Shown: positions 7,132-26,605 of the stretch, in pieces
Position numbering within the stretch: the stretch's first letter is position 1
Layout: each line of letters begins with the position of its first letter
Assembly: GCA_012729015.1 (NCBI GenBank)
Contig: JAAYDY010000072.1
Span: 8,920-72,919 of the forward strand
DNA: 64,000 nucleotides
Source: Phycisphaerae bacterium
Lineage (GTDB): Bacteria > Planctomycetota > Phycisphaerae > FEN-1346 > JAACEH01
Reading direction: 5' to 3'
Translations under genes and position numbers: made by a program
The notes under the pieces: generated by a model
What the model was told of the DNA's origin: nothing
Seen by the model: the letters and a program-made list of their open reading frames with translations, nothing else
Databases searched by the model: none

Positions 7132-7395
7132 TGCGGCGATGAGTGTATTATTGATCTAGCCCGATGAGGTCGTGGCGAACGCGCAGCGAATGTGAAGTGG
7201 ACAAAACCCCAGGGGCGGTGGTATGCTTCTGTGGGATTCGGCCGCTTGCGCTTGCGTGGCCTGGCGGGGTCTGCACGGCAGAGCGTAGCCGTAGGTCGGC
7301 AGGCCTGAATGGGACGGCGTTTCACCGGCCCTGCGAAATCCGCATCTCGTGACGTACCCTACAGGAGACTGGAGACAGTGGGAGAGCGAAGACGC

Positions 7396-8766
7396 ATGAG
7401 TGCGCCAACCGCCTCGGGCGGTCGGGGACCGATGTCGTTGGAGTCCTTCATGGAGACCGTGGTGGCCGGTTCTCCGGGCGAGAAGGAGTTCCATCAGGCG
7501 GTGCGGGAGGTGGCCAGGTCGGTGATGCCGGTCATCGCCGCCAACAAGGCCTATGCGGAGGCCCGGGTGCTGGAGCGCCTGGCGGTGCCGGATCGGGTCA
7601 TCGCGTTCCGGGTGACCTGGGTGGACGACCGCGGCGCGATCCAGATCAACCGCGGCTATCGCGTGCAGATGTCCAACGCAATCGGCCCGTACAAGGGCGG
7701 CCTGCGGTTTCACCCATCGGTGAATCTGGGGGTCCTGAAGTTTCTGGCCTTCGAGCAGGTGTTCAAGAACAGCCTGACGACCCTGCCGATGGGCGGCGCC
7801 AAGGGCGGCTCGGACTTCGACCCGCACGGTCGCAGCGACGGCGAGGTGATGCGGTTCTGCCAGGCGTTCATGAACGAGCTGTTTCGCCACATCGGGCCGG
7901 ACGTCGATGTGCCGGCCGGCGACATCGGCGTCGGCGGCCGGGAGATCGGGTACCTGTTCGGGCAGTACCGCAGGCTCACCAACCGGTTTCACGGCGTCCT
8001 GACGGGCAAGGGACTCAACCTGGGCGGCTCGCGGCTCCGCCCCGAAGCCACCGGCTACGGTACGGTCTACTTCGCGCAGGAGATGCTGGCCACGCGAGGC
8101 GACGCGCTGGCGGGCAAGACGGCCACTGTGTCGGGCTCGGGCAACGTGGCCCAGTACACGGTGGAGAAGCTCAACGAGTTCGGGGCCAAGGCCGTCACGT
8201 TGTCGGACTCGGGCGGCACGATCGTGGACCGCGAGGGGATTGTGCCCGAGAAGCTGGCCTGGGTGAAGGAACTCAAGAACGGCCGCCGCGGCCGCATCCA
8301 GGAGTACGCGGACCAGTTCAAAGGGGCCACGTACCTGGCGGGCCGGAGGCCCTGGTCGGTGCCGTGCGATCTGGCGTTTCCGTCGGCGACGCAGAACGAA
8401 CTGGACGGCGAGGACGCGGGGGCGCTGGTCAAGGGAGGCTGCCTGTGCGTCAGCGAGGGCGCGAACATGCCGTCCACGCCGGAGGCAATCGACGTTTTCC
8501 GCGAAGCCAGGATACTGTACGGCCCCGGCAAGGCGGCCAACGCCGGCGGGGTGGCGGTGTCGGGCCTGGAGATGACGCAGAACGCCGGTTGCATGCGTCG
8601 CGGCCGCGACGACGTGGACCGTCAGCTCCAGAGCATCATGAAGAGCATTCACGCCAATTGCGTGCGGTTCGGCCGCGAGGACGACGGCTTCGTCGATTAC
8701 CTCAAAGGGGCCAATATCGCCGGGTTCACGAAAGTTGCCGACGCCATCGTCGAACAAGGCGTGTGA
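7396..8766 (+). CDS. gdhA: NADP-specific glutamate dehydrogenase
   Basis: ORF 7309..8766. SLESFMETV...EFHQAVREV, KGGLRFHPSVNLGVLKFLAFEQVFKNSLTTLPMGGAKGGSDFDP and GYGTVYF are classic GdhA motifs. Start chosen at the ATG at 7396 (GGAGAG 10 nt upstream); 7432 is an alternative. Confidence 0.95.
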   Translation: MSAPTASGGRGPMSLESFMETVVAGSPGEKEFHQAVREVARSVMPVIAANKAYAEARVLERLAVPDRVIAFRVTWVDDRGAIQINRGYRVQMSNAIGPYKGGLRFHPSVNLGVLKFLAFEQVFKNSLTTLPMGGAKGGSDFDPHGRSDGEVMRFCQAFMNELFRHIGPDVDVPAGDIGVGGREIGYLFGQYRRLTNRFHGVLTGKGLNLGGSRLRPEATGYGTVYFAQEMLATRGDALAGKTATVSGSGNVAQYTVEKLNEFGAKAVTLSDSGGTIVDREGIVPEKLAWVKELKNGRRGRIQEYADQFKGATYLAGRRPWSVPCDLAFPSATQNELDGEDAGALVKGGCLCVSEGANMPSTPEAIDVFREARILYGPGKAANAGGVAVSGLEMTQNAGCMRRGRDDVDRQLQSIMKSIHANCVRFGREDDGFVDYLKGANIAGFTKVADAIVEQGV

Positions 8767-9042: not shown

Positions 9043-12000
9043 CTACTCTTTGTTCGGTACGGGTTTCTCGCTGTAGCCCTTGCCGAGCTTCTGACGGATC
9101 AGCTTCCTGGCAGTGTGAGCGGCGGTGACGTTGTCGGCAAAGACCTTCTTCTGGGTCTGTCCTCGAGCGCCGATGCGGCCGAAGCGGACGGTCACGGTGC
9201 GATCATCGAGGGCGACCTCCCAGAACTTGGCGGAGTTCCCGCCGACGAATTCGAAATAGCGCGCGAAGGGCTGGATGACCAAGGGCACCGGAGCGGCGGG
9301 GCGCTGCGGCGCACCGTCGCCGGGCGGCATTTCGCTGTGGGGCGGCGGCTGCCCCTCGGGCGTCGCCTCGGCGTCGGGCTCGGGCTCGTCGGGGCCGTCG
9401 AACTCGGCCCAGGCATCTTCCGTGTCGTCTTCCTCGGGCTCGACCTGCGGCGGTTCCTCGTCCTGTTCGACGGCTTGCACCAGGTGCTCCAGCACGGCGG
9501 CGCGGTCGCGATACCAGTCGCAGGAGAGGACGTGCGTGATGCGCCAGCCGAAAGCCTGCAGCAGTTGCGGCCGCATCATGTCGCGCTCCAGCAGATCCTC
9601 CTGCTGATAGTGGGTGGCGGTGTCGACCAGGATGCCCAGGCGGTAGTGTGGATCGCCGTGGCGACGCGCGGCGACGTCGCAGCGGAAGTGCGACATGCCG
9701 ACACCGGTGGCCACCGCGTAGCCGCGTTCCCGCAGGGCCGCGGCGACCTGTTCGACGACCGGGCTGGGCGGCGGCTCGTGGACCTCCTGGAGGTCGCGCC
9801 AGACGGCCAGTTCGCGGAGGATGCGCTGGCTTGCGGCCACGTCGCCGACGGAGCACGCGGCGGCATAGCGCAGGTAGCTCTTCAGGCAATTGGCCCCGTC
9901 GTTGTAGTCGTTGGTGATGTCGCTATGGTGGATTGAGCTGACCACGGCCATGTGGTGTTTGGCGCGGCTGAAGGCGACGTTCAGCCGCTTCTCGCCGCCG
10001 CTCTGGTTGATGGGGCCGAAGTTCATGCGCATCTTGCCGTCGGGGGCGTAGCCGTAGCAGACGCTGAGGATCATCACGTCGCGTTCGTCGCCCTGGATGT
10101 TCTCGAGGTTTTTCACCAGCAAGCCGACGAACTGGCCGTCGACCTCGCGCTCGGTCTCTTCTTCGAGCCGCTCGGCGAAGGCGGCGTCCTCGGCGGCCAG
10201 GCGCGACAGGGCGGAGGTGATCTCGTTCTGCTGGGCCTCGCTGAAGGCCACGATGCCGATGCTGTAGCCGCAGCCGCCCAGCAGAAGTCCGCGGACGAGA
10301 TGCGCGATGTAGTCGGCCTCGGCCCGGTTGCGGCGGTTGTCATAGAGGCCGCCGGAGAGGTAATGGAAACTGACGGGCCGGTCGAGGAGCCGGGCGACGT
10401 TGTCCTTCCCGTCGCCCGGGTCGGCGGCCACGATCTCTTCGTGAGTGCTGACGGTCACCTGCTCTTCGGGCACGGTCAGCAGGCGGCCCTGGTAGAAGGC
10501 CCAGTTGGAGAAGCTGATCAGGGACTCCGAGCGGCTCCGGTAATGCCAGCCGAGCATGCGCGACGGCAGGTTTCTGGCCGCGTGGGCGAGGAAGCTGTTG
10601 CTCGAGAGGTCGTACTCGAACGTCTGGCCATTCTCGCTGAGGAGCAGTCCGTCTTCGTCCTCGTCCTGGCCCTTGGCGGAGAAGAAGTCGGTGGGTGGCA
10701 GCTGCATCTCGTCGCCGACGACGATGGCCTGCCGGGCGCGGAACACCGAGGGGACGGCCTCCTCCAGTGTGATCTGGCTGGCCTCGTCGAAGATGACCAC
10801 GTCGAAAGCGTCGGTCTTCAGGGGCAACGTGTCGGAGACGCTCAGCGGGCTCATCAGCCAGATCGGCTTGAGGTCCTCGAGCACCAGGCCGGTGTCGCCG
10901 GTGGCCAGGTCGCGGATGGACTTGTGCCGCATGACCTTGCCGAACTCGTGCTCCAGTTCCCTGCGGCCGCGGCGGAAGGCGGCCTTGAACTCCTTCTGCT
11001 CTTCGGTCAGCGAGGCGGCCGGCAGCGACGCGACATGGACGTGCTCCAGGAACCTCTGCCGGGCCATCTCCAGCACCGAAGCGGCGTTGACCTCCTGCCA
11101 CTTGCGCGACAGCCGGGCCAGGCGGTCGACCTGGGCATCGCGGACGGCGCCTGTGAAGTGGTGCAGCGTGCGGTTGGCGCGGAAGAGCCGGGCGACGGCG
11201 GCGTGGGCCATGGCGGCCTCGAGGCCCGCGGCATCGAGCTCCATCGTCCGGAAGGCGTGGGCGAGGCGTTGCGGCAGCCGAGCGAGGCGGCCCAGGCAAA
11301 AGAGGAAGTCGCCCAGGGCGTCGAGCGACTGCTCGACGGTCCACAGGTCCTTCCGCAGCCCGTCGAGCGGTCGCTCCTCGAAGTCGTCCAGGACGGCGGC
11401 GCAAGCCTCGCGAAGTTCCTGGGCCACCTGCCGCATGCCGAGCAGGGGCTCGACGAGTTGCCGGGGCTGTTCGGAGCGGAGCACGGCCTGATGCAGCGTC
11501 TGGAGGCCTCCGGCGACACCCTGGGCGGCGCGGCGCCCGAGCTGGACCTGCTGCTGAACGGTCTGCAGCGGCCGGTCGACGGCCAGTATCCGGCAGAGTG
11601 CCGCCTCGGCGGCGGCCAGGGCGTCCTCGGCCTGGTACTCGGCCTCCAGCGCCATGAGCACCTGGGACCATCGCGGCCGCATGACGTGGTCGGCGAAGCG
11701 GTAGCGTTTGCCGAGGGCCTTCCTCAGCCGCCACCAGGCCGGGTTGAGGAACGCCAGAAGGCGGCCCTCGAGGGCCTGGGCCTGCTCCAGCGCCGGGCGG
11801 ACCTCCTGCGGCGGCAGCTTCTCGATCCAGTGTGTGGTTGCCTGGCGGGCGTGGGCGAGCGCGGCCTGCGAGACCTCCAGTTGCTTCAGGCCCTCGGCCA
11901 TGCGCTGCGAAAGCGGACTGCCGGGATCCAGCAGGGCCACCAGGCCTGCGGCGGCGAGCGGCTCGACCGCCGCGGCGTACTGGACGAGGGTCTCGACATC

Positions 12001-14598
12001 CTTCAGGCTGCGGGGGCCGGTGGTCCTCAGGGCCCCGGAGGCCAGCTTGGCCGCCAACTCGTCGAGCAGTCGCAGCGACTGCCGCACGGCGGCCTCGACG
12101 CGCTGCGTGGGCCGCTCGTGGTCGACAACTCTCGGACTGAGCAGCCGCAGCGGGTGATGGGCCAGAATGCCGTCGGGCTGGATGTCGGCCACCGCGGCGG
12201 TCACCTGCTCGATGGTCTGGCGATGGGCCAGCCACTCGGCGTAGTCTGGCAGCGACTCCAGCTCAGCGGGGCTGAGCCCGGGCGCGGCCTCGTGGAGTTC
12301 GATGGCCCGCTCGAGCAGTTCGCGGACGGGGAGGTCCGCCTCGCTCGCCGGCGCCAGCATGGCCTGGTTGAACTCCTGCAGGGGCTCCAACTCCTGGATC
12401 AGCATCTTGACGAGGTTGGCCCGCCGCCGCTGCCAGGACTTGGGCTTGGTTCTGGTCTCGGCCAGGAGCCCTTCGTAGGTCGCCTTCAGTTCGAGGATGA
12501 ACTCCTTCTTGTCGCTCTGGGAATCGTGGATGAGGCAGCAGAGATGCTGGAGCCCCTGCTGGCGGAGCCGGGCGAAGACGACGTCGATGGCGGCCCGCTT
12601 CTCGCAGACGAACAGGACGCGTTTGCCCTGCATCACGTAGTCGGCGATCAGGTTGGTGATCGTCTGCGACTTGCCCGTGCCGGGCGGTCCCTGGATGATG
12701 TAGTCGGCGCCGTCGCGGGCCAGGGCGATGGCCGTGGCCTGCGTCGGGTCGCAGGGCAGGATGTGGCAGCGATCCTCCAGCGGCGGGGCCGGCGGCGCCT
12801 CGTGCTCGACCGTCCGCGGCGCGAGCGAGAAGATGGCGTCGAAGGCCGGGCTCTCGAGGCCATCGGCCAACAGCTCGGCATAGTCGCGGACCAGGGTCAT
12901 CTTGCGGTACTTGAAGTTGCCGAGCGTCAGGCGGCACAGATCGAAATCCCAGGTGTACGGATTGCCGTCGCCCTCGGCGCGTAAGGCGTAGAACTGGCGG
13001 CTCTTCTCGGCCACGGGCGCCTCGGGCTCCACCATGAAGTTGCGCGGCGTGGGGTTCTCCTGGATAATCTCGCGCAAGTGCGTGGCGCTGGGCCGGATGC
13101 GGGCCCGGAACAGGGCCAGCCCCAGCGGGTGGAAGTTGGCTGGGTCGTAGCTGTAGTCCACCTGCATGAAGCTGCGCACGCCGGCACCGGCCAGGCGGGC
13201 GTTGCGGCGATAGCGGTCCAGTCGCCGGCGGGCCAGGTCGTGGATCAGGTCGATGCGTGGCCGGTCGATCTTGTTGAGCGTGACGCCCGGGTCGCTGGCG
13301 GTGATCTGGGCGGCCAGGCGGTCGTAGAACGCGTCGAGCGTGGTCTCGGCAAGGTCGATCGTCGCCGGCAGGTCGAGGTCGTAGACCTGCTTGAAGAGGT
13401 GCCGGACAACGGGGTTGATCTCGGCCTCGGACGACAGCGGCTGGACAAGGTAGGTGTCGCGAATGCCCTTCTTCTTGACGAGGCTCACCGGCAGCAGCAC
13501 CAAGGGCGAGTCGTAGGTCTCGGGCGGATCGGCCTTGACGTTGGCCCAGCGCAGGAAGACCAGGGCCAGGCGCAATTGCTCGAAGCCGAACTCGGCGGCG
13601 TCGCGCCGGGCGTCGGCCCGGATGTGGTCGAGCACACTCGGCAGGAAGAGCTGTTCGGAGAAATTGAGATAGCGGTTTAGCGAGACCGGCTCGGCGGCCG
13701 AGATGGCCCGGGCGAACTCGCCCTTCCAGGCCAGGATCTGTTCGGGCCGGATGCTCCGGACGTCGAACGACAGCGGCACCGAGGCGTGCGTCAGGTTGAC
13801 GGTGTGCATTGTCGGCCGAAAATGCAGGAGCCGGTTGCGGCGCGACAGTTCGAACAGGCGTTCCTGGAGCTTGCCGAGGATGACCTGCCTGCGCGGCCCG
13901 GCAGCCGCCTGGGCCTCGGTGCTCGCCAGGTCGAAGGCGAAGTCGACGTTCTGATCGCGGTAGTTGGCCAGGTTGTCGATCAGGGTCGAGAGGTCCTGCG
14001 GCCGGCGGTGGCGACTGAGCTCGGTCATGCGGACGATGGCCTTGGCCAGCACCGGGTGCAGTTGCGGACGGATGCCGAACAGGTTCTGCCGATTGGCGAC
14101 GAAGGCCTCCAGGTCCTCCGGCTGGTTGAAGTCCAGCCCGCAGGCCAGGCTGGCCAGAATCATGCCCAGGCAGAACACGTCCGACAGCGGATCGTGATGG
14201 CCGACCTGCTGCTCCCAGCAGACGTACCCCGGCAGGTAGACCGGCTGGGTGACCTCCTGGTCCCGGGCGCCGATGAGCAGGTTGGCCGACCGCTCCGGGC
14301 CGTCGTCGACGTCGATGGTCCGTTTGCTCTGCGACAGGATCTCGACCCCGCCGACCTCGCGGTCGAGCTGGCGGACGCGGGCCCCGTTGGCGCGCGGCGG
14401 CAGAGACGACGACTCGGGGAACCAGAGCTGCACGCCCTCGACCTGGAGCAACGCCACCCCCACCAGCGGGGCGACCTTGCCCGCCGTATGGAGCTGGGCC
14501 ACCTGACGAGCCAGGGGCAGGAAACTGGCCAGGGTGTCCTCGGTGGAGAACCCGCCCAGTTCGAAACGCGACAGGAGGAATTCGTGGAACGTGGCCAT
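9043..14598 (-). CDS. 1851-aa multidomain protein: kinase-like (catalytically dead) N-domain, DUF4011-like region, Upf1/DNA2-like SF1 helicase, restriction-endonuclease-like domain, C-terminal WGR domain
   Basis: ORF 9043..14940, trimmed to MATFHEF... (ATG at 14598), because the upstream part overlaps the preceding gene. Kinase C-lobe-like YLPGYVCWEQQVGHHDPLSDVFCLGMILASLACG, with no HRD motif or Gly-loop. Helicase motifs are GPPGTGKSQ, VVIFDEASQ, VVGDEMQLPP, WHYRSRSESLI, QGDERDVMILS and RLNVAFSRAK. REase-like segment GYAVATGVGMSHFRCDVAA...LGILVD. WGR-like segment YFEFVGGNSAKFWEVALDDRTVTVRFGRIGARGQTQ. Confidence 0.85.
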   Translation of the reverse strand: MATFHEFLLSRFELGGFSTEDTLASFLPLARQVAQLHTAGKVAPLVGVALLQVEGVQLWFPESSSLPPRANGARVRQLDREVGGVEILSQSKRTIDVDDGPERSANLLIGARDQEVTQPVYLPGYVCWEQQVGHHDPLSDVFCLGMILASLACGLDFNQPEDLEAFVANRQNLFGIRPQLHPVLAKAIVRMTELSRHRRPQDLSTLIDNLANYRDQNVDFAFDLASTEAQAAAGPRRQVILGKLQERLFELSRRNRLLHFRPTMHTVNLTHASVPLSFDVRSIRPEQILAWKGEFARAISAAEPVSLNRYLNFSEQLFLPSVLDHIRADARRDAAEFGFEQLRLALVFLRWANVKADPPETYDSPLVLLPVSLVKKKGIRDTYLVQPLSSEAEINPVVRHLFKQVYDLDLPATIDLAETTLDAFYDRLAAQITASDPGVTLNKIDRPRIDLIHDLARRRLDRYRRNARLAGAGVRSFMQVDYSYDPANFHPLGLALFRARIRPSATHLREIIQENPTPRNFMVEPEAPVAEKSRQFYALRAEGDGNPYTWDFDLCRLTLGNFKYRKMTLVRDYAELLADGLESPAFDAIFSLAPRTVEHEAPPAPPLEDRCHILPCDPTQATAIALARDGADYIIQGPPGTGKSQTITNLIADYVMQGKRVLFVCEKRAAIDVVFARLRQQGLQHLCCLIHDSQSDKKEFILELKATYEGLLAETRTKPKSWQRRRANLVKMLIQELEPLQEFNQAMLAPASEADLPVRELLERAIELHEAAPGLSPAELESLPDYAEWLAHRQTIEQVTAAVADIQPDGILAHHPLRLLSPRVVDHERPTQRVEAAVRQSLRLLDELAAKLASGALRTTGPRSLKDVETLVQYAAAVEPLAAAGLVALLDPGSPLSQRMAEGLKQLEVSQAALAHARQATTHWIEKLPPQEVRPALEQAQALEGRLLAFLNPAWWRLRKALGKRYRFADHVMRPRWSQVLMALEAEYQAEDALAAAEAALCRILAVDRPLQTVQQQVQLGRRAAQGVAGGLQTLHQAVLRSEQPRQLVEPLLGMRQVAQELREACAAVLDDFEERPLDGLRKDLWTVEQSLDALGDFLFCLGRLARLPQRLAHAFRTMELDAAGLEAAMAHAAVARLFRANRTLHHFTGAVRDAQVDRLARLSRKWQEVNAASVLEMARQRFLEHVHVASLPAASLTEEQKEFKAAFRRGRRELEHEFGKVMRHKSIRDLATGDTGLVLEDLKPIWLMSPLSVSDTLPLKTDAFDVVIFDEASQITLEEAVPSVFRARQAIVVGDEMQLPPTDFFSAKGQDEDEDGLLLSENGQTFEYDLSSNSFLAHAARNLPSRMLGWHYRSRSESLISFSNWAFYQGRLLTVPEEQVTVSTHEEIVAADPGDGKDNVARLLDRPVSFHYLSGGLYDNRRNRAEADYIAHLVRGLLLGGCGYSIGIVAFSEAQQNEITSALSRLAAEDAAFAERLEEETEREVDGQFVGLLVKNLENIQGDERDVMILSVCYGYAPDGKMRMNFGPINQSGGEKRLNVAFSRAKHHMAVVSSIHHSDITNDYNDGANCLKSYLRYAAACSVGDVAASQRILRELAVWRDLQEVHEPPPSPVVEQVAAALRERGYAVATGVGMSHFRCDVAARRHGDPHYRLGILVDTATHYQQEDLLERDMMRPQLLQAFGWRITHVLSCDWYRDRAAVLEHLVQAVEQDEEPPQVEPEEDDTEDAWAEFDGPDEPEPDAEATPEGQPPPHSEMPPGDGAPQRPAAPVPLVIQPFARYFEFVGGNSAKFWEVALDDRTVTVRFGRIGARGQTQKKVFADNVTAAHTARKLIRQKLGKGYSEKPVPNKE

Positions 14599-14600
14599 GG

Positions 14601-15806
14601 TCAGTCCGTGGCCTCCGCAGCCCGGGCGACAATTGTCGCCGCATTGGCCTCGATGGCCTCCATCTGCTTCTTGCGCAGCTTCAACTCCTTCACCGCCAAC
14701 TGCCGGAACCGCTCGCCGAGCCCCAGGGCGTCGCTCAGGAGCATGGCCGCCGCCAGCGGCGCTTCCTCCAGATCCCGGTCGGCCACGGCGAAATCGAGCA
14801 TCACATAGCAGAAGTAGTCGCGGAGATTCTCGTTGTCGCAGGCCAGGTCGGAGGCCAGGTCGCCGTCGACGGCTCCCGCGGGCTGGAAGTCGTCGAAGAA
14901 CAGCCGGGCATGGGCCAGGGTCGCCTCGGTGCGCAGCCACGCCGGGCGCAGCAGTGCCGCGATGAGCCGCCGCGTGAGGCCCGAGACCTTCTGCTGTGCG
15001 AGCAGGTCGAGCTCGGACAGCGACAGCGGGCCCTCGATGGTGCGAGCGATCTCGGCGGCAGCGACATGGTCCTGCTCAACCCAGAGCTGCATCGCCTTGA
15101 CGCGGATGAACGTTTCGGGGTGCGTCACGCCCTCGCTCCGGGGGTGGCCCTTGTCGAAGATCTCCTGCGTCTGGCGGAGGTAGCTGTCGGCCGAAACATC
15201 TGTGGTCCCGGTCTCCAGCTTCACCAGCGAGGTAATGCAGGCGTCGAGGTCGCCGGTAACGCGGTGCGCGCCGCGGTCGCAGTAGACTTCGCTGTAGAGT
15301 TGAAAGAGCCGTGCGCTGGCGAAGTGCGACGGCTCGGCCTGGGCGTCGTTGGTCATGGCCGACAGGATCTGCGAGGCGATCAGGTAGTCGCTCCAGCGGT
15401 CGAGCAGGCCGAAGTGCAGCAGTTCGTGGCCCAGGACGCAGCGGAGCTCGGTGCCGGTCAGCGTCGTCGTCACCGGCCCGGTGAAGACGACATGGGCCTC
15501 GCCCGGCATGTACGCCAGCGACGCGTTCAGGCCGACGGCCGTCTGGGCCTGGTAGAACGTGATGGGCACGTTCAACCCGAGGTCCCTGGCCACGTCCTCG
15601 GCCGACGCGTAGAGCATCCCGTTGGCGTCAGGCTCCACGCGATAGGTCGACTTCAGGAGATCGAGCCGTACCTCGTCGTTCTGCTGAGCCCGCAGCCGGC
15701 CCGAAGCGAACCACTTCCAGAGGTCCGCCTCCTCGCTCTGGAGATAATGGATCATCTCGACGTGGTAAGCCAGCGGCTCCAATGGCAAGGGAAAGACCTG
15801 GTCCAC
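14601..15806 (-). CDS. HExxH zinc-metalloprotease-like protein (M48-like), coupled to the helicase gene
   Basis: ORF 14601..15806 (GTG start, uncertain). It contains AHVVFTGPVTTTLTGTELRCVLGHELLHFGLLD, an HELLH motif in an M48-like context. Its stop is separated from the downstream ATG by 2 nt (TGA-CC-ATG). Confidence 0.6.
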   Translation of the reverse strand: MDQVFPLPLEPLAYHVEMIHYLQSEEADLWKWFASGRLRAQQNDEVRLDLLKSTYRVEPDANGMLYASAEDVARDLGLNVPITFYQAQTAVGLNASLAYMPGEAHVVFTGPVTTTLTGTELRCVLGHELLHFGLLDRWSDYLIASQILSAMTNDAQAEPSHFASARLFQLYSEVYCDRGAHRVTGDLDACITSLVKLETGTTDVSADSYLRQTQEIFDKGHPRSEGVTHPETFIRVKAMQLWVEQDHVAAAEIARTIEGPLSLSELDLLAQQKVSGLTRRLIAALLRPAWLRTEATLAHARLFFDDFQPAGAVDGDLASDLACDNENLRDYFCYVMLDFAVADRDLEEAPLAAAMLLSDALGLGERFRQLAVKELKLRKKQMEAIEANAATIVARAAEATD

Positions 15807-17983: not shown

Positions 17984-19096
17984 TCAGCCGTAGGGCTTTG
18001 CGACAGGAGTGAACTTCCCTTCCGCAAGAACGTAGTGCTCAACACGAGCGGGACTCCATCGCACGTCCACCGTTGGCACACTGAGTGCCGCCAACTCGCC
18101 ATACGCCTTATCGAACACGGCGGCAATGTCCTTCATGAGCGCCGCTGGCACAGTTACCGAGTCTGTGTCGGTGCAGTTCAAATAGACCATCCGGGGAAGC
18201 ATCCTGGAATCCGTCAGTACCGCCCAGTGCCCTTCCTCGGGATTCACCTGCGACAGCAGTTGCTCAACCTTCGAGTACGCCTCTTGCAGGTCGCCGTCGT
18301 CCCAGTCATCGCGCGACGTGGCCAGAGCGATCCAGCCGTGGTATTCAATGCTCATATTGTTCTGCCCCTTCTCTTCTACGCCGCAGCCAGGTACCATGGC
18401 CGCCCATTGCTCGGCTCCCAAGTACTTCAGGGACTCAGTGATCACCATCTCCTCGGGCAGTGGTTCTGCGAATGAGAGATAGGCGGCACAGGCTGCTTCC
18501 CCGACTGTCCGAAGATCATCAACAACGCGAGCAACAAACTCCTGCGGCGGCATCGTCTTTCCTGAGGCAACGAGCTTATTAGTCCATGTCTCGTAGGGAA
18601 GGATTCCGAACCACCTCCCTTTCTTCAGAAGCACGTGCTCGATGTGGAATACAGCACCAGTCGAGTCCACCATGACGTCGGAATCATCCCAAGTGCCAGC
18701 GTCGCAAAGATCGGCATCTCCACACCATTCTTCGCGGCAATAGACACTGTGTCCCCCCCGATCGAAGACAATCACAGGCCACATAGGCGACGTATCTTTG
18801 CCAACCGAGAAAGGAGCTTCGACATGGCCACCCCAAGGTGCGCCGGACCAGTCCCACAAATGCCGAAGCTCCAGCCGTTGAACGTCACTGAACGCAGGCT
18901 CTTTCTCAGCCCCCTTGATGGCGTAGAGTACGTTCCACGTCCTGCACCTCACGCTGATGATGCCGCGCTCAATCTCTGAGCAGTCAACGACCTCGACATC
19001 CCGCCGGACGTCTGGGGCGAGGAAGCGAGTAACCACCCGCCCAGGGCGGTAGGTCCTCCGTCGGAGATACAGGCGAATGCTCCGTAGGATCCTCAT
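17984..19096 (-). CDS. Hypothetical protein with C-terminal Imm7-like immunity domain
   Basis: ORF 17984..19198, trimmed to MRILRSIRLY... (AGGAG 7 nt upstream). The C-terminal about 124 aa begin MSIEYHGWIALATSRDDWDD, resembling the start of Imm7-family immunity proteins. This may be an independent internal start. Confidence 0.5.
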   Translation of the reverse strand: MRILRSIRLYLRRRTYRPGRVVTRFLAPDVRRDVEVVDCSEIERGIISVRCRTWNVLYAIKGAEKEPAFSDVQRLELRHLWDWSGAPWGGHVEAPFSVGKDTSPMWPVIVFDRGGHSVYCREEWCGDADLCDAGTWDDSDVMVDSTGAVFHIEHVLLKKGRWFGILPYETWTNKLVASGKTMPPQEFVARVVDDLRTVGEAACAAYLSFAEPLPEEMVITESLKYLGAEQWAAMVPGCGVEEKGQNNMSIEYHGWIALATSRDDWDDGDLQEAYSKVEQLLSQVNPEEGHWAVLTDSRMLPRMVYLNCTDTDSVTVPAALMKDIAAVFDKAYGELAALSVPTVDVRWSPARVEHYVLAEGKFTPVAKPYG

Positions 19097-19194
19097 TGGC
19101 CCACTCCTCTGTGCACCCCTGTCGCAACGCGAGCAAGGCCACCGGCAGCGATGCTGCCTATCTCCAGAAGTTCTGTGTTCATCCCGCAAGCAGC

Positions 19195-19500
19195 TCACGC
19201 GGCCGTGCCGAGCCAGTCGACAACTAGAGCATAGGCTTGCTCCAGGACTGATCCTAGACCGAACAGGTCAGTCTGCATCTCTTCGGTGCGGTTGTCTCTG
19301 CCTCGCTTCCGATACACTGCCGCATGAACCACAACACTGCCATCCCCAGTGGGGGCGTCAACCCATATTTGTCCACGTTCTCCTTGGGGCCCTTGCAGGA
19401 GCACCGTGCGCACGTCTGTATCGTGATATAGGGTCTTCATGGCGAGCCCGTGCTTCATTGCCCACTCTTGAAGAAGGCTGTCCATCGGCTCGTAGCTCAT
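19195..19500 (-). CDS. Hypothetical small protein (101 aa)
   Basis: ORF in the low-GC cassette. Its stop overlaps the longest-ORF GTG of the next gene (GTGA at 19195-19198). No motif recognised. Confidence 0.4.
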   Translation of the reverse strand: MSYEPMDSLLQEWAMKHGLAMKTLYHDTDVRTVLLQGPQGERGQIWVDAPTGDGSVVVHAAVYRKRGRDNRTEEMQTDLFGLGSVLEQAYALVVDWLGTAA

Positions 19501-19566
19501 TGAAGTGGCGCTCCTAGGCCCAAGGTCTCAGTCTTGGCACTTGACACGGCCATCCCTTACTACGTT

Positions 19567-19631
19567 GTGCCGAGCAGCAGCGCGGCGGTTCCTGTGTCGT
19601 GGCTATCGGCATCCACCAGGCCGAAGCCGCC
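19567..19631 (-). repeat. GH5-like gene 3' end, copy B (about 65 nt only)
   Basis: gtgccgagcagcagcgcggcggttcctgtgtcgtggctatcggcatccaccaggccgaagccgcc is near-identical to 20813-20877 and to 16245-16310. Translated it gives GGFGLVDADSHDTGTAALLLG. Confidence 0.7.
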
Positions 19632-19643
19632 ACCCTCCTTCTC

Positions 19644-20189
19644 TCACGGTTGCTGTTTCTCAAGTACGTCGTCAAACCTGTCCGGATTGAACCGCTCGTA
19701 AGGTCCCCACCAGCGTCCGGAGGGCGTCTGGGGAAGCGTGTGGATTCGCTGGAGAGATTCTACGTGGTGTTTCAGACAGAACACAGAGCCTTTAATGGCG
19801 TGCTTCGAGCATCCTTCCTTGCGGCAGGAGTTTGTGCTTGCGACGAACTTCTGTATTGTCAGGAAACGGTCTATGCTGGCCGCGAAGATCAAGACCTCGT
19901 CAGGGTCGACGAATGGCAGTTCCAGCCAATCGGACAACTCTATCGCGGGTACGCCGAATAGGTAAGGCTTGGCTCCCCAGTTCCACGCACTGCTTCGCTG
20001 CCAGCATTGGTTGCACACGGGGCACTTCATCAGCACGTGCTCGCCGTCTGGGTGCTTGCCCAGAACCACGAGTCGGGTGGCGATCTTCTTATACTCGCCG
20101 GCCCGACGAGTGATGGCTTCTCGCTGGAGCTCCAGGGCACCATACTGGTGGCACGGGCAGCCTGCTTGGTCGCGATTCTGGTCGTCCAT
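19644..20189 (-). CDS. Hypothetical Cys-rich (probable zinc-binding) protein, 181 aa
   Basis: ORF with CPCH, CPVCNQC and CRKEGCSKHAIKGSVFCLKHH clusters. Low-GC cassette. Confidence 0.5.
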   Translation of the reverse strand: MDDQNRDQAGCPCHQYGALELQREAITRRAGEYKKIATRLVVLGKHPDGEHVLMKCPVCNQCWQRSSAWNWGAKPYLFGVPAIELSDWLELPFVDPDEVLIFAASIDRFLTIQKFVASTNSCRKEGCSKHAIKGSVFCLKHHVESLQRIHTLPQTPSGRWWGPYERFNPDRFDDVLEKQQP

Positions 20190-20204
20190 GGGCCAGTCCT
20201 CATG

Positions 20205-20792
20205 TTATGGAAGACGCACCCGCAGCTCGCGGTACACATACTCTTGATCTCTGACTTCACATTCGGGCGAATAGAATTGCAGCATCGCCCGGTGAATCCC
20301 AGGAGCCACATGTAGGCCGAGAGGCGAGGATTCAATGTGGCCAACGATCTCATCGCTGGTGAGCCCCACATTCTTGATATCGCTGAAGACCGCTTCCAAC
20401 TGCGGCACGGTGAGACTGCCGGGGAAGTCGACCGTGAGATTCAGCAGGATGCCAAACGGCTTGTGGAATTGCTCGAACTCCTGCATGACTTCGTGGTGCT
20501 CAGCAACGTACCTCTGCAGTTGTTCCGTCTCTTCGGGCGACAGCGGCTCGACGAGCCAGAGCGACAACTGCTCGTTGTCGACCGATGGCTTCCACGCCTT
20601 GCTCAAGAGACGTCGAGCAAGGACCATCCCGTCTCGATTCTTCCTCTTGCGATCCGCCAGGTGAAACCGCGGGCGATAGACATCCATGATGACGCGAAGC
20701 ACCTTGCAGATACCACACGAGTCACTCGACCGAATCCAACTCCCCGGCTCAGGTATCATCGGCGGGTGCCTGCTGCGACCTTGTAGTGTCAT
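20205..20792 (-). CDS. Hypothetical protein, 195 aa (start uncertain)
   Basis: ORF directly downstream of the GH5 remnant. No motif recognised. Confidence 0.4.
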   Translation of the reverse strand: MTLQGRSRHPPMIPEPGSWIRSSDSCGICKVLRVIMDVYRPRFHLADRKRKNRDGMVLARRLLSKAWKPSVDNEQLSLWLVEPLSPEETEQLQRYVAEHHEVMQEFEQFHKPFGILLNLTVDFPGSLTVPQLEAVFSDIKNVGLTSDEIVGHIESSPLGLHVAPGIHRAMLQFYSPECEVRDQEYVYRELRVRLP

Positions 20793-20804
20793 TCCGGTCC
20801 CCTG

Positions 20805-21179
20805 TTACTCTGCGCCGAGCAGCAGCGCGGCAGTTCCTGTGTCGTGGCCATCGGCATCCACCAGGCCGAAGCCGCCGCGGTAGTCCCAGTTGGCGAAGGC
20901 GATGTCCAGTTCGCCGAACACACTGACGATGTCGCGGTACCAGCGGCCGCGGGCAGGCTCAGGGGGCACCAGGCGGCAACCGAACTCGCCGCAATAGAGC
21001 GGCCGCGAAGTCTTCTTGCGCACCGCCAGCGGCTTGGCGAAGACTGCCAGCATCGCCTCGCGATCATAGGGCTCGTTCCATTTGTCCCACGTCTCGCGGC
21101 GCTCCGACTGGCTGAGCCAATGCGAGATGTTCGTGCCGCGTCTGATCACGAAACCCATGGTGTCGCTCCACTCAACCAA
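20805..21179 (-). pseudogene. GH5-like glycoside hydrolase remnant with internal deletion, copy C
   Basis: The 124-aa ORF joins an N-terminal-type strand (GFVIRRGTNISHWLSQ) directly to the nucleophile region (PLYCGEFG) and the C-terminus (FANWDYRGGFGLVDADGHDTGTAALLLGAE). It is far too short for an intact GH5 barrel. Confidence 0.55.
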
Positions 21180-21191
21180 GTCTGACGTCGA

Positions 21192-21947
21192 CTACTGATA
21201 CGCCAGCAAGTCCTTGCCGCCCAACTGGGTATACCGGGACAAGTCCTCCTCGGCTCCACCTTTGTCTCCATCGAGCTCACGTGCTTCCGCCCGAAGCCGA
21301 TAGGCATTTGTCAACCCCGGGAAGCTTTCGATTGCGGTACTGAAATCGGCAATGGCGCCGGCGTAGTCTCTCGCTGCAAGCCTCGCGAGCCCACGGAAGA
21401 GAGGACCGAAAACGGGCCGTTCACCTTCCAAGGAGATCGCCTCCGTCAGGTCGTCGATCGCGCCTGCCAAGTCACCGACACGATGTCTGGCCTTACCCCG
21501 GTTCAGCAGGCCCGATAGTCGTCCCTCTGGTGAGACCTCCATGTCCGTGGTGAAGTCTGAAATCGCGGCAGCATAGTCACCAATGGTCACACGCGCTCGG
21601 CCTCGATGGAAGAACGCGTAGGGGTGCCTGGGATCGATGGCGATGGCCGCCAAGTAGTCCTCGATAGCACCTGACGAGTCGCCGGCCCGAGCCCTGGCAT
21701 CCGCTCGACACGTGTACCCCTTGGGGTTGGTCGGCCACCGGGCGATCATTGTGCTGAAATCCGCAATCGCCCCCTGAAGGTCACGGCTGAACATCTTGGC
21801 CCGGCCGCGCTCCTCCAACGCCCAGGAGTTGTCGGGATTGGCGTCCACCACGGCATCCAGAAGGGGCACGGCTTCGGCCGAATGTCCGCTCCGGATGAGG
21901 CGACTTGCTTCTTTCAGCTTGCTCTGTGATGGATCAGTGTCTGTCAT
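21192..21947 (-). CDS. Tetratricopeptide (TPR) repeat protein
   Basis: 251-aa ORF with repeated 34-aa units, for example GAIADFSTMIARWPTNPKGY, GAIEDYLAAIAIDPRHPYAFFHRG, AAISDFTTDMEV and GAIADFSTAIESFPG. Confidence 0.85.
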   Translation of the reverse strand: MTDTDPSQSKLKEASRLIRSGHSAEAVPLLDAVVDANPDNSWALEERGRAKMFSRDLQGAIADFSTMIARWPTNPKGYTCRADARARAGDSSGAIEDYLAAIAIDPRHPYAFFHRGRARVTIGDYAAAISDFTTDMEVSPEGRLSGLLNRGKARHRVGDLAGAIDDLTEAISLEGERPVFGPLFRGLARLAARDYAGAIADFSTAIESFPGLTNAYRLRAEARELDGDKGGAEEDLSRYTQLGGKDLLAYQ

Positions 21948-22039
21948 GGTTCCGCTGACTGTACCCAGCCCTTACAGGGTGCGAGCCCAGATCCCACCCC
22001 AAGAAGATATCGCAACATACGAGAGGCCGACAAGCAGAA

Positions 22040-22106
22040 AGCAGTTCAGTAGTGGGCGAGGCGCCAGTCTGTTGCAGATTGAACATCCAATATTCAATCT
22101 GCAAGA
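22040..22106 (+). repeat. Repeat R1: about 67-nt element with a perfect 11-bp hairpin
   Basis: Stem ttgcagattga (22072-22082), 11-nt loop, stem tcaatctgcaa (22094-22104), preceded by agcagt..gtgggcgag. It is AT-rich relative to the genome and has a direct-orientation partner at 23393-23459. Confidence 0.8.
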
Positions 22107-22243
22107 AACGGCCAGCCAGTCGGGCCACTCGCCCAGGGCACATGTCTGGCTTCACTTGCCCTTGTGTTGCCTGACGTTGAGCGCCTTCCAGAGAAGCAAG
22201 GGATGGGTCCGGATTCGCTCAACCATCTTGGCCTCGGCAGTCA

Positions 22244-22357
22244 GCAATTCTGGTCTGATCCGGCCATGGTCAAGGAGCTCGTCCAAGAAGTCGAGTTCGT
22301 TAGCTGCCAGCCCGTGGCCTGCGATTCATTCATCAGCCGCTCGCGGGAGACCTTCAT
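22244..22357 (-). pseudogene. Probable truncated AbiEii-type toxin gene remnant
   Basis: The ATG at 22357 overlaps the AbiEi stop (ATGA). The frame reads MKVSRERLMNESQATGW..., which resembles AbiEii/DUF1814 N-termini, but stops after 37 codons. Too short to appear in the ORF track. Confidence 0.35.
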
Positions 22358-23154
22358 ACCACCTCCTCCCAGACCCGTTCAGTCAACTGCTTTGGAACGA
22401 TCAGATTCCAGTCGCCTACCAGTTCTCCGCCCTTGCCGCGGTCCAGGTAGTGGGGCTGCTTGGGCCGCAGCTTCCGCAGGGGTTCAAGATGCCGGCTTTC
22501 CACCATTAGCGATTGTGCATGCCGCTCTAGGTAGTAGCCCACCGCAGCCGCAGTCGTACGGTTGTTCAGCAGCTTGGCGTATTCGACCACCAAGTCTAAG
22601 TCGAAGTATTCGACCGACTCCAGTGACCGCCACACCTCTTCCCAGCCTCCGCCCAAATCTTGGCGGTCGTGCAAATCGACGAGCGTTCGCTCGAGGCTTG
22701 CCACCCGGACGTCCACTCCCGATCGTTCGACGTTCGTCGTGGCGAAGAACGGCTTGTTCCGCTCGCGCAAGGCCTTGGGGAACAGGACGCATTCGAATCG
22801 GTACGCCCGGAAGCTTGCTGGGCGGTGCAGCCGAGCACTCTGGAAGAAGTACCGTTCGAACACGGAGTGGGCCTTGCCATGGACCTCAAGGGCCGTATGG
22901 TAGGCCAGGACTGCATCTTCGGCCAGCTTCGCCGCCACCAGGTAGGGGTCAACGGGGCAGGTTTCCGGATCGCCGCCGGGCGGGACAACCGCATACAATC
23001 CCCGCCGCACCCGAAGAAGCCGTCCTTCCTTGAGATAGTAGGACAACAGTGCCTCACGGGAGCGCTTGTTGCGTGAGTGCTTCTGGTCGAGATACGCCTG
23101 AAGTTCTTCCAAGGTAAGAACGGGCCTGTTGGAAACCAGTTGCTGGAGTGTCAT
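22354..23154 (-). CDS. AbiEi-family type IV toxin-antitoxin antitoxin / transcriptional regulator
   Basis: ORF 22354..23523, trimmed to MTLQQLVSNRPVLTLEELQAYL.... It continues GRLLRVRRGLYAVVPPG...YLVAAKLAEDAVLAYHTALEVHG...VRVASLERTLVDL, the typical AbiEi architecture. Confidence 0.75.
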   Translation of the reverse strand: MTLQQLVSNRPVLTLEELQAYLDQKHSRNKRSREALLSYYLKEGRLLRVRRGLYAVVPPGGDPETCPVDPYLVAAKLAEDAVLAYHTALEVHGKAHSVFERYFFQSARLHRPASFRAYRFECVLFPKALRERNKPFFATTNVERSGVDVRVASLERTLVDLHDRQDLGGGWEEVWRSLESVEYFDLDLVVEYAKLLNNRTTAAAVGYYLERHAQSLMVESRHLEPLRKLRPKQPHYLDRGKGGELVGDWNLIVPKQLTERVWEEVV

Positions 23155-23392
23155 GACGACCCTCACTTGACGATACACGACGAAACCCATAGTCTCATTA
23201 AGTGCTACGTCGAACAAGTTCAAGTGTCGGCCTTCCCCGCCGCACACTTGATGAAACCCGACGAAACACCGCATTATATTACGTGTTTCGTCTGGTTTTG
23301 TCAAGACACAAGGAGTCTCGTAAGCCGTTGCTCCGTCACTCGCACTGGACACCATCATGGCCTCCGCCAGGCAAACGCCCGTCTTGACAGCC

Positions 23393-23459
23393 AGCAGTGC
23401 GGTGGTGGGCGAGATGTCGGCCCCTTGCAGATTGAATATCCGATCTTCAATCTGCAAGA
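23393..23459 (+). repeat. Repeat R2: second copy of the hairpin element
   Basis: Stem ttgcagattga (23425-23435), 11-nt loop, stem tcaatctgcaa (23447-23457). About 80% identical to R1 over about 67 nt, in the same orientation. Confidence 0.8.
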
Positions 23460-23551
23460 CCCACGCACCGGCTAGAGCCCCTCGCGGCACCCAAATGGCC
23501 GCCGCGTGACTAATCCTTGACACTTGCTTGGATTAGTCTACCATTTGTAAC

Positions 23552-24157
23552 ATGGCTGAAGAAACCAAGATGCGCCGGCTCCTGGAGTTTGTGGAGCGGC
23601 ACGGCGTGGTGCATGCCCGCGACCTGAAGTCGCTGGGCGTACCTCGGGAGTATCTCCGTCGGCTGTGCGACCGAGGGGTTCTGGTCAGAACTGGCCGCGG
23701 CCTTTACCTGACACCGAGAGCCGCCGACACCGCTCATCTTGACTTGGCTCAGGTTGCAAAGGCGATTCCCAATGCGGTAATCTGCCTGGTGTCGGCTCTT
23801 CAGTTTCACGAGATAGGCACACAGATACCCCACGATGTCTGGCTGGCACTCGACCGCCGCGCCGCTCGGCCCGCCGTTACCTACCCGCCAGTACGCATTG
23901 TACGTTTCTCCGGCAAAGCCCTGACCGAGGGCGTACAGCAGCACGATATTGTCGGCGTCCGGGTGAATGTCTACGGGCCGGCCAAGACGGTGGCGGACTG
24001 CTTCAAGTACCGCAACAAGGTCGGTCTCGACGTGGCGCTGGAAGCCCTGCGGGACGTTCGGCGCACACGCCGCTGCACAAACGACGAGCTCTGGACCTAC
24101 GCGGAGATCTGCCGCGTGACGAATGTCATGCGGCCCTACATGGAGGTCATCGGATGA
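23552..24157 (+). CDS. AbiEi_4-like antitoxin-domain protein
   Basis: 201-aa ORF. RRLLEFVERHGVVHARDLKSLGVPREYLRRLCDRGVLVRTGRGLYLTP is a wHTH of AbiEi_4 type. Its stop overlaps the next start (ATGA at 24154-24157). Confidence 0.7.
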   Translation: MAEETKMRRLLEFVERHGVVHARDLKSLGVPREYLRRLCDRGVLVRTGRGLYLTPRAADTAHLDLAQVAKAIPNAVICLVSALQFHEIGTQIPHDVWLALDRRAARPAVTYPPVRIVRFSGKALTEGVQQHDIVGVRVNVYGPAKTVADCFKYRNKVGLDVALEALRDVRRTRRCTNDELWTYAEICRVTNVMRPYMEVIG

Positions 24158-24471
24158 GCGGACGGAAGGCTAACGTCTACTTCAAGAATCGTCTGGCGGG
24201 TCAACTCCACGAGACAGACTGCGGCTTTGTGTTTCAGTATGATCCGGTCTACCTTGCCAATGGCAAGCCTATCTCCCTCACGCTACCAGTGCGGGCGGAG
24301 CCGTATGTGAGCGAGAAGTTGCCGTCGTTCTTTGAGGGACTGCTACCTGAGGGCTGGTACGAGGAGATCGTGTCCAAGGTTCTGAAGGTCGACCCTGTAG
24401 ATCGGTTTGGCATGCTGCTGGCCACGTGTCGGGACTGTGTCGGCGCCGCATCTATCGAACCGGCAGAGTAG
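24154..24471 (+). CDS. HipA N-terminal-domain protein (HipS-like), no kinase partner
   Basis: 105 aa. VYFKNRLAGQLHETDCGFVFQYDPVYL...LPSFFEGLLPEGW matches the HipA N-subdomain signature. The gene ends 62 nt from the convergent hsdM stop, leaving no room for a HipA/HipT kinase domain. Confidence 0.7.
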   Translation: MSGRKANVYFKNRLAGQLHETDCGFVFQYDPVYLANGKPISLTLPVRAEPYVSEKLPSFFEGLLPEGWYEEIVSKVLKVDPVDRFGMLLATCRDCVGAASIEPAE

Positions 24472-24532
24472 GGCGTGGCGAGGTCAAATGGAGCGTCTCT
24501 CGGATAGCACTGCCATAGCCGCCTCCGTAGGA

Positions 24533-26077: not shown

Positions 26078-26605
26078 TTAACTTCTGCTTCCCATCAGCC
26101 GCCTGGCTTCTTCCCGAGCGGCTTGGGTGAACCTCTTCTCCACCTCGTCAACAGTCCGCAGAGCATCAAGGAATGGCCCCACGTATTCCTTGCCGTCGAA
26201 GTTGCCGGCTTTGTACTGGTCTTTGAACGCCCCGAGTATTGTGCTGATGCGGTCTCTCACGTCGTGTACCTGGCCGGCGTACTCCTTCAAGTGTTCGAAG
26301 TGCAGCGACACCAACATCCTGATGGTCTCGTAGTGTCGATTCTCTTCGTCTGACCGATGACGATTGATCGTGATGTCGAGGGCTTGGTTGTAACTGATCT
26401 CGCCCATCATCACTTTGGCGTAATGGGCGTGCTCCGACACCAGGAGCTTACAGAAGCCAGAGAAGGCCATGAACAACTGTTCGAGTTTCTGCCGCCTGAT
26501 GGCCCTGTCGTCCCTGCTGACCGAGAGCCTATGTGCAACCATTGCAGCGACGACCCCGCTGCACACCACCGTAAGGACTGCGAGAAGTACCTGCGGACCG
26601 CTCAT
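26078..26605 (-). CDS. Hypothetical single-pass membrane protein wedged between hsdS and hsdM
   Basis: 175-aa ORF with N-terminal TM segment PQVLLAVLTVVCSGVVAAMVA. Its ATG overlaps the hsdS stop (ATGA at 26602-26605), and its stop lies 3 nt before the longest hsdM ORF. Confidence 0.5.
   Translation of the reverse strand: MSGPQVLLAVLTVVCSGVVAAMVAHRLSVSRDDRAIRRQKLEQLFMAFSGFCKLLVSEHAHYAKVMMGEISYNQALDITINRHRSDEENRHYETIRMLVSLHFEHLKEYAGQVHDVRDRISTILGAFKDQYKAGNFDGKEYVGPFLDALRTVDEVEKRFTQAAREEARRLMGSRS

Follow-up and report, generated by a model that had tools for sequence, protein, structure and literature searches.

A sequence-defined branch of giant DUF4011 helicases that pairs a pseudokinase-bearing protein with an M48-type protease

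A 64,000-nucleotide (nt) stretch of DNA from a Phycisphaerae bacterium (GenBank assembly GCA_012729015.1, contig JAAYDY010000072.1, positions 8,920 to 72,919; hereafter the window) carries two coupled genes, one for an M48-type metalloprotease (gene A) and one for a giant helicase protein (gene B). Judged by sequence, gene B and its orthologues are a third, undescribed branch of the superfamily that combines DUF4011, a superfamily 1B (SF1B) helicase and a Vsr-like domain, whose characterised members, Hhe and ProA, are single-gene anti-phage proteins. The clade is defined by an N-terminal pseudokinase, by its protease partner and, in 36 of 63 members, by an optional WGR tail in place of DUF3320. 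We tentatively read the pair, with somewhat less than even confidence, as an accessory, self-contained conflict module of the Hhe/ProA type, in which the helicase protein would sense nucleic acid and the protease would serve as effector or regulator.

A two-gene unit found across phyla

The unit lies on the reverse strand of the window, with the following elements.

14601..15806, reverse strand: gene A, open reading frame (ORF) for the M48-type protease, 401 amino acids, GTG start, HELLH at residues 127-131
14599..14603, reverse strand: junction, TGAcc and then ATG, with the gene A stop 2 nt from the gene B start
9043..14598, reverse strand: gene B, giant helicase ORF, 1851 amino acids, ATG start at 14598

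Sequence and ORFs agree with the first-pass annotation of this DNA, which had placed the stop of a 401-amino-acid HELLH gene 2 nt from the ATG of an 1851-amino-acid protein. A GGAGG sequence lies inside the protease gene, 13 nt upstream of the gene B ATG. A longer, 1965-amino-acid reading of gene B from a GTG at 14940 was rejected: M1 of the 1851-amino-acid form is invariant in the homologue alignment, and since homologues from many phyla share this methionine and the protease gene fills the intervening stretch, the GTG is not the true start. With hundreds of full-length homologues at 35-71% identity, both ORFs are real genes rather than chance ORFs of DNA rich in guanine and cytosine (GC). 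The 3' end of gene B is convergent with gdhA (7309..8766, forward strand), as had been noted earlier, and a scan for promoters and terminators at the locus gave nothing above background.

Pairing was counted in the best 80 loci of at least 587 matches returned by a one-genome-per-species scan with the family alignment, while residue conservation and co-variation were counted over 63 loci with both proteins. The protease gene stands directly upstream, on the same strand, in 76 of the 80 best loci, so that the co-occurrence on which the first-pass annotation had staked its proposal beforehand holds well outside the window. As for the exceptions, L081 is a fragment, and L032, L056 and L057 carry an intact helicase gene with no protease; L027, counted among the 76, has an intact helicase gene and only a protease remnant. 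Spacing between the genes is tight throughout the cases inspected, from a 2-nt gap in the window and in Anaeromyxobacter to overlaps of 4 nt in Roseimaritima and Ralstonia and 13 nt in Pseudomonas. Across the 63 loci, pairwise identities of the protease and of the helicase protein are correlated (r = 0.85, a value reached by 0 of 999 Mantel permutations). Together, near-universal adjacency and correlated identities indicate that the two genes are inherited as a unit.

Clustering of the flanking ORFs of the 80 loci revealed no third conserved gene, and on the same grounds a 68-amino-acid ORF upstream of the pair in the sister contigs L004-L008 was rejected as such a gene. A long ORF in L083 that would fuse protease and helicase was judged to be a frame artefact of a high-GC long-read assembly. 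In Pseudomonas sp. OHS18 (L069, 6686-13435), the protease and helicase genes are each split into two ORFs, the result of either joint pseudogenisation or assembly frameshift errors.

The best 80 loci come from Planctomycetota, Verrucomicrobiota, Bacteroidota, Pseudomonadota, Actinomycetota, Myxococcota, Armatimonadota and Obscuribacterales. One locus, labelled 'Oceanobacillus sp. HTM 045' (L075, WNWL01000003.1), was dropped from this range; with a GC content of 0.72 in the pair and its flanks, implausible for Oceanobacillus, it probably represents a contaminant or a mislabelled assembly. Hosts include Ralstonia solanacearum, Burkholderia cepacia, Pseudomonas tolaasii, P. syringae, P. putida, Lysobacter and Caulobacter. 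Even so, the pair is accessory: it sits on 13-14 of about 136 Ralstonia megaplasmids that carry a UvrA paralogue, and in Pseudomonas it is patchy, occurring in some species only. In one of these Ralstonia solanacearum replicons (L089, CP047137), the pair lies directly upstream of the 1945-amino-acid UvrA paralogue (18886-24723). Database names of clade members are all generic: AAA domain, WGR domain, DUF4011 or DNA helicase.

Domains of the two proteins

The layout of the two proteins, from the N-terminus of each, is as follows; all features lie on the reverse strand.

Gene A, whole protein: N-terminal helical region, then catalytic domain at about residues 54-200, then all-helical C-terminal domain at 201-401
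15414-15428: gene A residues 127-131, HELLH, catalytic residues together with E173 and D177
13954..14598: gene B residues 1-215, pseudokinase (from Foldseek and residue conservation)
12799..13881: residues 240-600, DUF4011 region, Pfam core 247-397 (Pfam and AlphaFold2 secondary structure)
12499..12750: residues 617-700, first part of the superfamily 1 (SF1) helicase RecA1 domain, with Walker A GPPGTGKS at 637-644 (Pfam AAA_11)
10834..12498: residues 701-1255, long insert (composition, conservation and position relative to the helicase motifs)
9859..10833: residues 1256-1580, part with helicase motifs II-VI (Pfam AAA_11, and AAA_12 at 1343-1555)
9472..9753: residues 1616-1709, Vsr/MTES_1575-type PD-(D/E)xK-like domain (Pfam, 73.6 bits)
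9262..9471: residues 1710-1779, acidic linker (composition and gap fraction)
9064..9261: residues 1780-1845, WGR domain, PF05406 (Pfam, 60.2 bits against a cut-off of 22; match to PDB 2ra8)

The N-terminus of gene B was known from the first-pass annotation only as a kinase-like region lacking catalytic motifs, a description that structure prediction upholds. An AlphaFold2 (AF2) model of residues 1-610 was compared with the PDB by Foldseek. The predicted local distance difference test score (pLDDT) is 73 overall, mostly 82-94 over residues 1-80 and 111-210, and about 57-76 between 81 and 110. The best 50 PDB matches are all protein kinases, for example PknB, Aurora A, STK16 and Myt1; 46 of the 50 have a probability of 1.00 over roughly 197-244 aligned columns, and the remaining four, AMPK full-length chains, have 0.85-0.93. 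At the level of sequence the kinase signal is faint, with E = 0.18 for PpkA and E = 1e-4 for the PD-T4-6 kinase model, and the Pfam Pkinase model gave no match to gene B at E <= 0.1. The kinase-like fold corresponds to a C-lobe from its start: nothing like an N-lobe, with its Gly-loop and VAIK lysine, comes before the helix at residues 19-38. APL (43-45) occupies the HRD position and WFP (59-61) that of DFG. Because the fold is that of a kinase while the Gly-loop, the VAIK Lys, the HRD Asp, the catalytic-loop Asn and the DFG Asp are all missing, the modeled N-terminus of gene B is a pseudokinase, a kinase fold without catalytic residues.

What has been kept is the scaffold of the C-lobe. D140 and G145 of the DxWxxG motif are conserved in 61 and 63 of 63 orthologues and R199 in 63 of 63; E129, the Glu of the APE motif, is invariant in family alignments of 12 and of 28 sequences, and an HHD motif (134-136) is near-invariant. 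A HMMER scan of 1.84 billion representative proteins found the domain in 361 clusters at E <= 1e-3, always N-terminal, and by itself it accounts for about 150-360 sequence clusters at 50% identity. Full-length hits with the domain are all 1640-1942 amino acids long, and the shorter ones are probably fragments. Found only at the N-terminus of such proteins, the pseudokinase serves as a marker of this helicase clade.

Gene A is an M48-type protease by Pfam (26.3 bits against a cut-off of 20.3, E = 7e-6), with H127, E128, H131, E173 and D177 conserved in 61-62 of 63 orthologues. In its confident AF2 model (pLDDT 92), a helical domain of 200 residues follows a small alpha/beta catalytic domain. 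The best Foldseek matches, all weak, are BepA, an HtpX domain and selecase. Proteases of the BepA/HtpX type resemble gene A in their HExxH motif and downstream Glu and in the succession of catalytic and helical domains, BepA being the best structural match. Gene A differs from them in its very weak similarity, in belonging to a dedicated subfamily always adjoining this helicase and in being soluble: it has no hydrophobic segment, signal peptide or membrane segment (maximum Kyte-Doolittle 1.05) and is thus a soluble, cytoplasmic protease. Searches of gene A against PADLOC models (best E = 0.056) and of the protease profile against PDB sequences gave no match, and NCBIfam gave no specific one.

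Pfam and composition agree with the remainder of the layout proposed at first pass, namely DUF4011, an SF1 Upf1-type helicase with a long insert, an acidic linker and a WGR domain. The DUF4011 region comprises the Pfam core and a conserved extension, has a mixed alpha/beta fold in the AF2 model and is locally similar to the DUF4011 regions of Hhe and ProA. The motor has the full set of SF1 motifs: GPPGTGKS (I), VIFDEASQ (II), GDEMQLPP (III), QGDERD (V) and NVAFSRAK (VI). K643, S644, D1271, E1272, Q1299 and R1545 are kept in 62-63 of 63 orthologues (K643 and R1545 in 62; D1271, E1272 and Q1299 in all 63). The motor belongs to the Upf1-like SF1B helicases, its closest solved structures being SMUBP-2, Sen1 and Upf1, and gene B matches no known housekeeping helicase family, an outcome that had been proposed as a check on the defence reading. 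Between motifs Ia and II lies the helical insert of 555 residues, rich in Leu, Ala, Arg and Glu and less conserved than the motor. The linker of 70 residues is of low complexity (17 Pro, 13 Glu and 8 Asp) and is absent from the WGR-less form; the clade accordingly has two length classes of gene B, about 1850 and about 1720-1750 amino acids. Median identity among gene B orthologues is 40% over about 1800 amino acids across phyla. WGR domains of PARP1-3 are DNA-break-binding modules.

The nuclease-like domain presents a more equivocal picture. The Vsr/restriction-endonuclease-like domain recognized earlier is well supported as a domain by the MTES_1575 match; nuclease activity is another matter. 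In alignment, GILVDTATHY...LERDMMR of gene B stands against GIECDGAAYH...RDRDRLR, common to Hhe and ProA. Where the IECDG motif has its Glu, 52 of 63 orthologues have Leu (L1657 in gene B) and none has an acidic residue. D1641 is kept in 49 orthologues and lost in 14; 60 retain D1659, 57 have an acidic residue at 1671 (E1671 in gene B), and only 27 have H1663. Since the Glu of the Hhe/ProA motif is absent, nuclease activity of gene B cannot be assumed. Authentic Vsr likewise has no acidic residue at this position, so inactivity of the domain is not proven. Hhe, which has a Vsr domain, protects against phage in experiments, and the E1731A substitution in Escherichia coli Hhe abolishes defence (bioRxiv 10.1101/2022.06.16.496414). 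Judging by a four-residue offset in numbering, E1731 is most likely the motif Glu (E1727 in Klebsiella Hhe). Across the clade, loss of this Glu coincides with the gain of an intact protease.

Relation to Hhe, ProA and other helicase-based systems

Several defence models recognize the core of gene B, and none of them describes the whole protein. The strongest PADLOC match is PDC-S37 (E = 5e-210), which aligns residues 550-1728 with positions 218-1356 of 1550, covering 73% of the model and 64% of the protein; the PADLOC model has no curated cut-off here. A PADLOC run might well label gene B PDC-S37, a single-gene phage-defence candidate, although the match covers neither the pseudokinase nor the WGR domain and only a minor part of the DUF4011 region. 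The PADLOC Hhe model follows at E = 5e-88. Among curated families ProA (NCBIfam NF058533) scores best, with 700.7 bits against a cut-off of 1500 over gene B residues 607-1732 and model positions 641-1725, and Hhe (NF042953) reaches 448.4 bits against 2000. By way of reference, the Ralstonia DUF3320 protein QKM30027.1 passes as ProA with 1522.1 bits and a Klebsiella plasmid protein as Hhe with 2732, while the Ralstonia orthologue of the clade scores 707 (ProA) and 473 (Hhe) bits, like the window protein.

Hhe shares with gene B the order of DUF4011, an Upf1-like SF1 helicase with a long insert and a Vsr/MTES_1575-type domain, and is of similar size (about 1800-1900 amino acids), with 30% identity in the nuclease-like region. 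It differs in that its DUF4011 starts at about residue 24, it has neither pseudokinase nor WGR, it keeps the IECDG Glu and, common on conjugative Klebsiella plasmids, it had no protease neighbour at the locus examined. ProA shares DUF4011 and the helicase-nuclease core. It ends in DUF3320 (model positions about 1725-1903) where gene B has its linker and WGR, lacks a pseudokinase, keeps the IECDG Glu and had no M48 neighbour at the locus examined. The conserved DUF4011 core falls at residues 160-203 in ProA and at 329-373 in the window protein; with DUF4011 placed so early, Hhe and ProA have no room for the 215-residue pseudokinase. Equivalence of gene B to either was therefore rejected on the curated cut-offs and the architecture.

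The same comparisons revise two points of the first-pass annotation, which had taken Mokosh as its reference and had set a restriction-endonuclease-like nuclease against the PLD nuclease of that system. Mokosh (MkoA helicase with MkoB PLD nuclease, or the MkoC fusion) belongs to the same COG1112/Upf1-like SF1 class as gene B. Its similarity to gene B is, however, far weaker than that of Hhe, ProA or PDC-S37: MkoA and MkoC match only the C-terminal helicase half, residues 1262-1582 (E = 2.5e-34 and 1.5e-22), and Pfam finds no PLD domain in gene A or gene B. Mokosh membership was rejected on these two grounds. Fusion of a helicase to a Vsr-like domain is the known architecture of Hhe and ProA and is not novel here, given that the PDC-S37, ProA and Hhe models match the helicase-nuclease core best.

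Genomic setting, proposed function and rival readings

In the window, a lower-GC defence island begins 6.5 kb from the pair. Its GC content is 0.58-0.63 (the pair and the gdhA flank have 0.67-0.69), and it holds the following genes.

22354-46538: extent of the lower-GC island
22354-23523: AbiEi
24533-26074: hsdM of a type I restriction-modification system
26602-28191: hsdS
30197-33016: hsdR
33223-36156: SNF2 helicase, with a PLD-like partner, resembling PDC-M27/Zac components
36153-38216: PLD-like protein
40785-41891: ADP-ribosylglycohydrolase
42373-43506: AAA_28 protein
43698-44789: SUFU-like protein
45099-46538: protein with NERD (nuclease) and topoisomerase zinc-ribbon domains

Two reverse-strand ORFs between hsdS and hsdR (28192-29397 and 29439-30200, 401 and 253 amino acids) match no Pfam or PADLOC model and may be embedded defence cargo. 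Neither 38213-39550 (reverse strand, 445 amino acids) nor 47154-50096 (forward strand, 980 amino acids) has a Pfam match; the 445-amino-acid ORF, with a 4-nt overlap across the stop of the PLD-like gene, is a possible third component of the SNF2 and PLD system. Between the protease gene and the island lie a 404-amino-acid ORF with a weak match to the immunity protein Imm7 (17984-19198, reverse strand) and a TPR protein (21192-21947, reverse strand); the rest of the 15.8-22 kb stretch contains no recognisable families. The earlier placement of the pair at the edge of a defence island is thus true of the window, and it is not general in about 40 other genomes. In Pseudomonas aeruginosa, a core 'large DUF4011 gene' and a small hypothetical gene mark the right flank of the defence hotspot cDHS1 (PMC10250203), a position that echoes that of the pair beside its island. 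A link between that gene and the clade was not established, no P. aeruginosa protein being among the best 120 hits to one Pseudomonas member of the clade.

How might such a pair work? Translational coupling would supply both proteins in fixed proportion, and they would form a complex, in which the helical C-terminal domain of the protease probably docks on, or is regulated through, the dead kinase domain. The Upf1-like motor and DUF4011, with WGR where present, would load on nucleic acid that is foreign or aberrant, with DNA ends or nicks as the most likely target, and track along it. The M48 protease could then provide at least part of the output, either as an effector that cleaves phage or host proteins or as a switch that licenses the helicase protein. 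An output that runs at least partly through the protease is proposed because the Glu retained in Hhe and ProA is gone from the nuclease-like domain. A still more specific proposal, that a motor with two 'dead' domains senses DNA and directs or activates the M48 protease as the business end of a helicase-guided protease system, we regard as unlikely, albeit attractive for what it would imply.

Defence is here argued from homology rather than from context, as the island setting does not generalise, and a number of observations weigh against it. Gene B falls below the curated cut-offs of both Hhe and ProA, and our literature search found no paper that describes the pair or an M48/WGR/DUF4011 pairing, and none on ProA or PDC-S37. 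Three genomes have an intact helicase gene and no protease, besides the remnant in L027. Neighbourhoods in about 40 other genomes were surveyed over about 8 kb on each side, with crude ORF calls and no matched control: among 140 nearest and 112 further ORFs, only a handful match PADLOC models at 1e-10, several of these through generic kinase, helicase or dGTPase models, and the Pfam families are those of ordinary regulators, transporters, enzymes and metabolism. No member of the clade occurs in 50,697 phage records, and ordinary plasmids lack it too; among plasmids the pair is confined to the Ralstonia megaplasmids. IMG/VR yielded a single distant relative, a PDC-S37-like helicase of 1279 amino acids without the N-terminal domains. 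Over a range from 0.32 to 0.75, GC content is similar in the pair and in its flanks (difference +0.013, standard deviation 0.028); in the window the pair resembles the gdhA side in this respect rather than the island.

One of the few defence-like neighbours is a reverse transcriptase in Candidatus Laterigemmans baculatus (L010, 2294-3304), about 4.5 kb upstream of the pair, which matches PADLOC RT_VI and other defence-associated reverse transcriptase models. At the IMG/VR locus (L090, 5665-10850; UViG 2870897478_000005), a 449-amino-acid gene of unknown family overlaps the stop of the 1279-amino-acid relative by 4 nt.

The chromosomal, ameliorated setting outside islands keeps genome maintenance a serious rival, doubtful as we consider it. 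On this account a helicase that tracks DNA and senses breaks through WGR brings a metalloprotease to protein obstacles such as DNA-protein crosslinks or stalled complexes, much as the eukaryotic SPRTN/Wss1 proteases work alongside motors, and the nuclease-like domain is a structure-specific DNA-binding or nicking module. Several observations favor it: the pair is chromosomal, compositionally ameliorated and outside defence islands in about 40 genomes, the clade is missing from phages and ordinary plasmids, sequences are well conserved for their size (the median of 40% across phyla given above), the protease is intact where the nuclease motif is degraded, WGR is known as a DNA-break-binding module, and the pair adjoins the UvrA paralogue in Ralstonia and dnaE in Variovorax. 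These adjacencies are, however, lineage-specific, with no repair gene a conserved neighbour, and WGR is dispensable in nearly half of the clade. For a repair pathway it is unusual to be as patchy and accessory as the pair is, even within a single species complex. Its closest characterised relatives act against phages and, to our knowledge, M48 proteases are not known as DNA-dependent proteases.

Distinctly less probable, in our estimation, is killing by DNA cutting, with gene B as an Hhe-like helicase-nuclease in which D1641, D1659 and E1671 form a variant site that is active as in authentic Vsr, which functions without the Glu, and the protease reduced to a maturation, quality-control or anti-toxicity factor for the giant protein that, for instance, removes or degrades an autoinhibitory pseudokinase. 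The strong MTES_1575 match (73.6 bits) and the retention of D1659 and of an acidic residue at 1671 fit this proposal, and so do the few genomes with a helicase gene and no protease, which imply that the helicase protein may work alone, and the Hhe and ProA loci examined, which show no partner gene. Set against it are the IECDG Glu position, acidic in 0 of 63 orthologues, the loss of D1641 in 14 and the inactivation of Hhe by E1731A; moreover, near-invariant catalytic residues and near-universal coupling across phyla would be unexpected of a mere maturation factor. RNA-directed surveillance, in which the Upf1-like motor acts on RNA and monitors aberrant or foreign transcripts, appears very unlikely. 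The nearest solved helicases, SMUBP-2, Sen1 and Upf1, are RNA/DNA helicases, Upf1, Sen1 and IGHMBP2 act on RNA, the MkoA model matches the motor, and RNA is the proposed target of both MkoA and CoCoNuT CnuH. For CnuH, a Upf1-like helicase that carries helical inserts and, in one type, is fused to a Vsr-like domain, RNA is the predicted target (PMC10542128). A similar motor need not act on the same substrate, however: DNA binding is the role for which Vsr-type and WGR domains are best known, and Pfam detects no RNA-specific domain (SmpB-like, CSD or HEPN) in the pair.

Our tentative preference stays with a conflict module related to Hhe and ProA. These two proteins and PDC-S37 illustrate that giants built from a DUF4011 helicase and a Vsr-like domain can act in anti-phage defence. 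The clade is a natural variant of that design, with a coupled intact metalloprotease, a clade-specific pseudokinase and a degraded nuclease motif, and for this reason offers a handle on which parts of such giants sense and which kill. Within it, L027, L032, L056 and L057 are protease-less variants provided by nature that could show whether the helicase protein works alone. Should the helicase-guided protease be borne out, it would represent either a new form of protease-effector immunity or the first protease in bacteria that works with a motor to clear DNA of proteins. Discovery pipelines that start from defence islands would have missed the pair, since it is not associated with them. If it does defend, the search space for defence systems widens; if it does not, it marks a boundary at which homology to defence proteins misleads. 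In either event, two 'dead' enzyme domains joined to a live protease are an unusual combination, and the pair is widespread, strictly conserved and present in experimentally tractable hosts.

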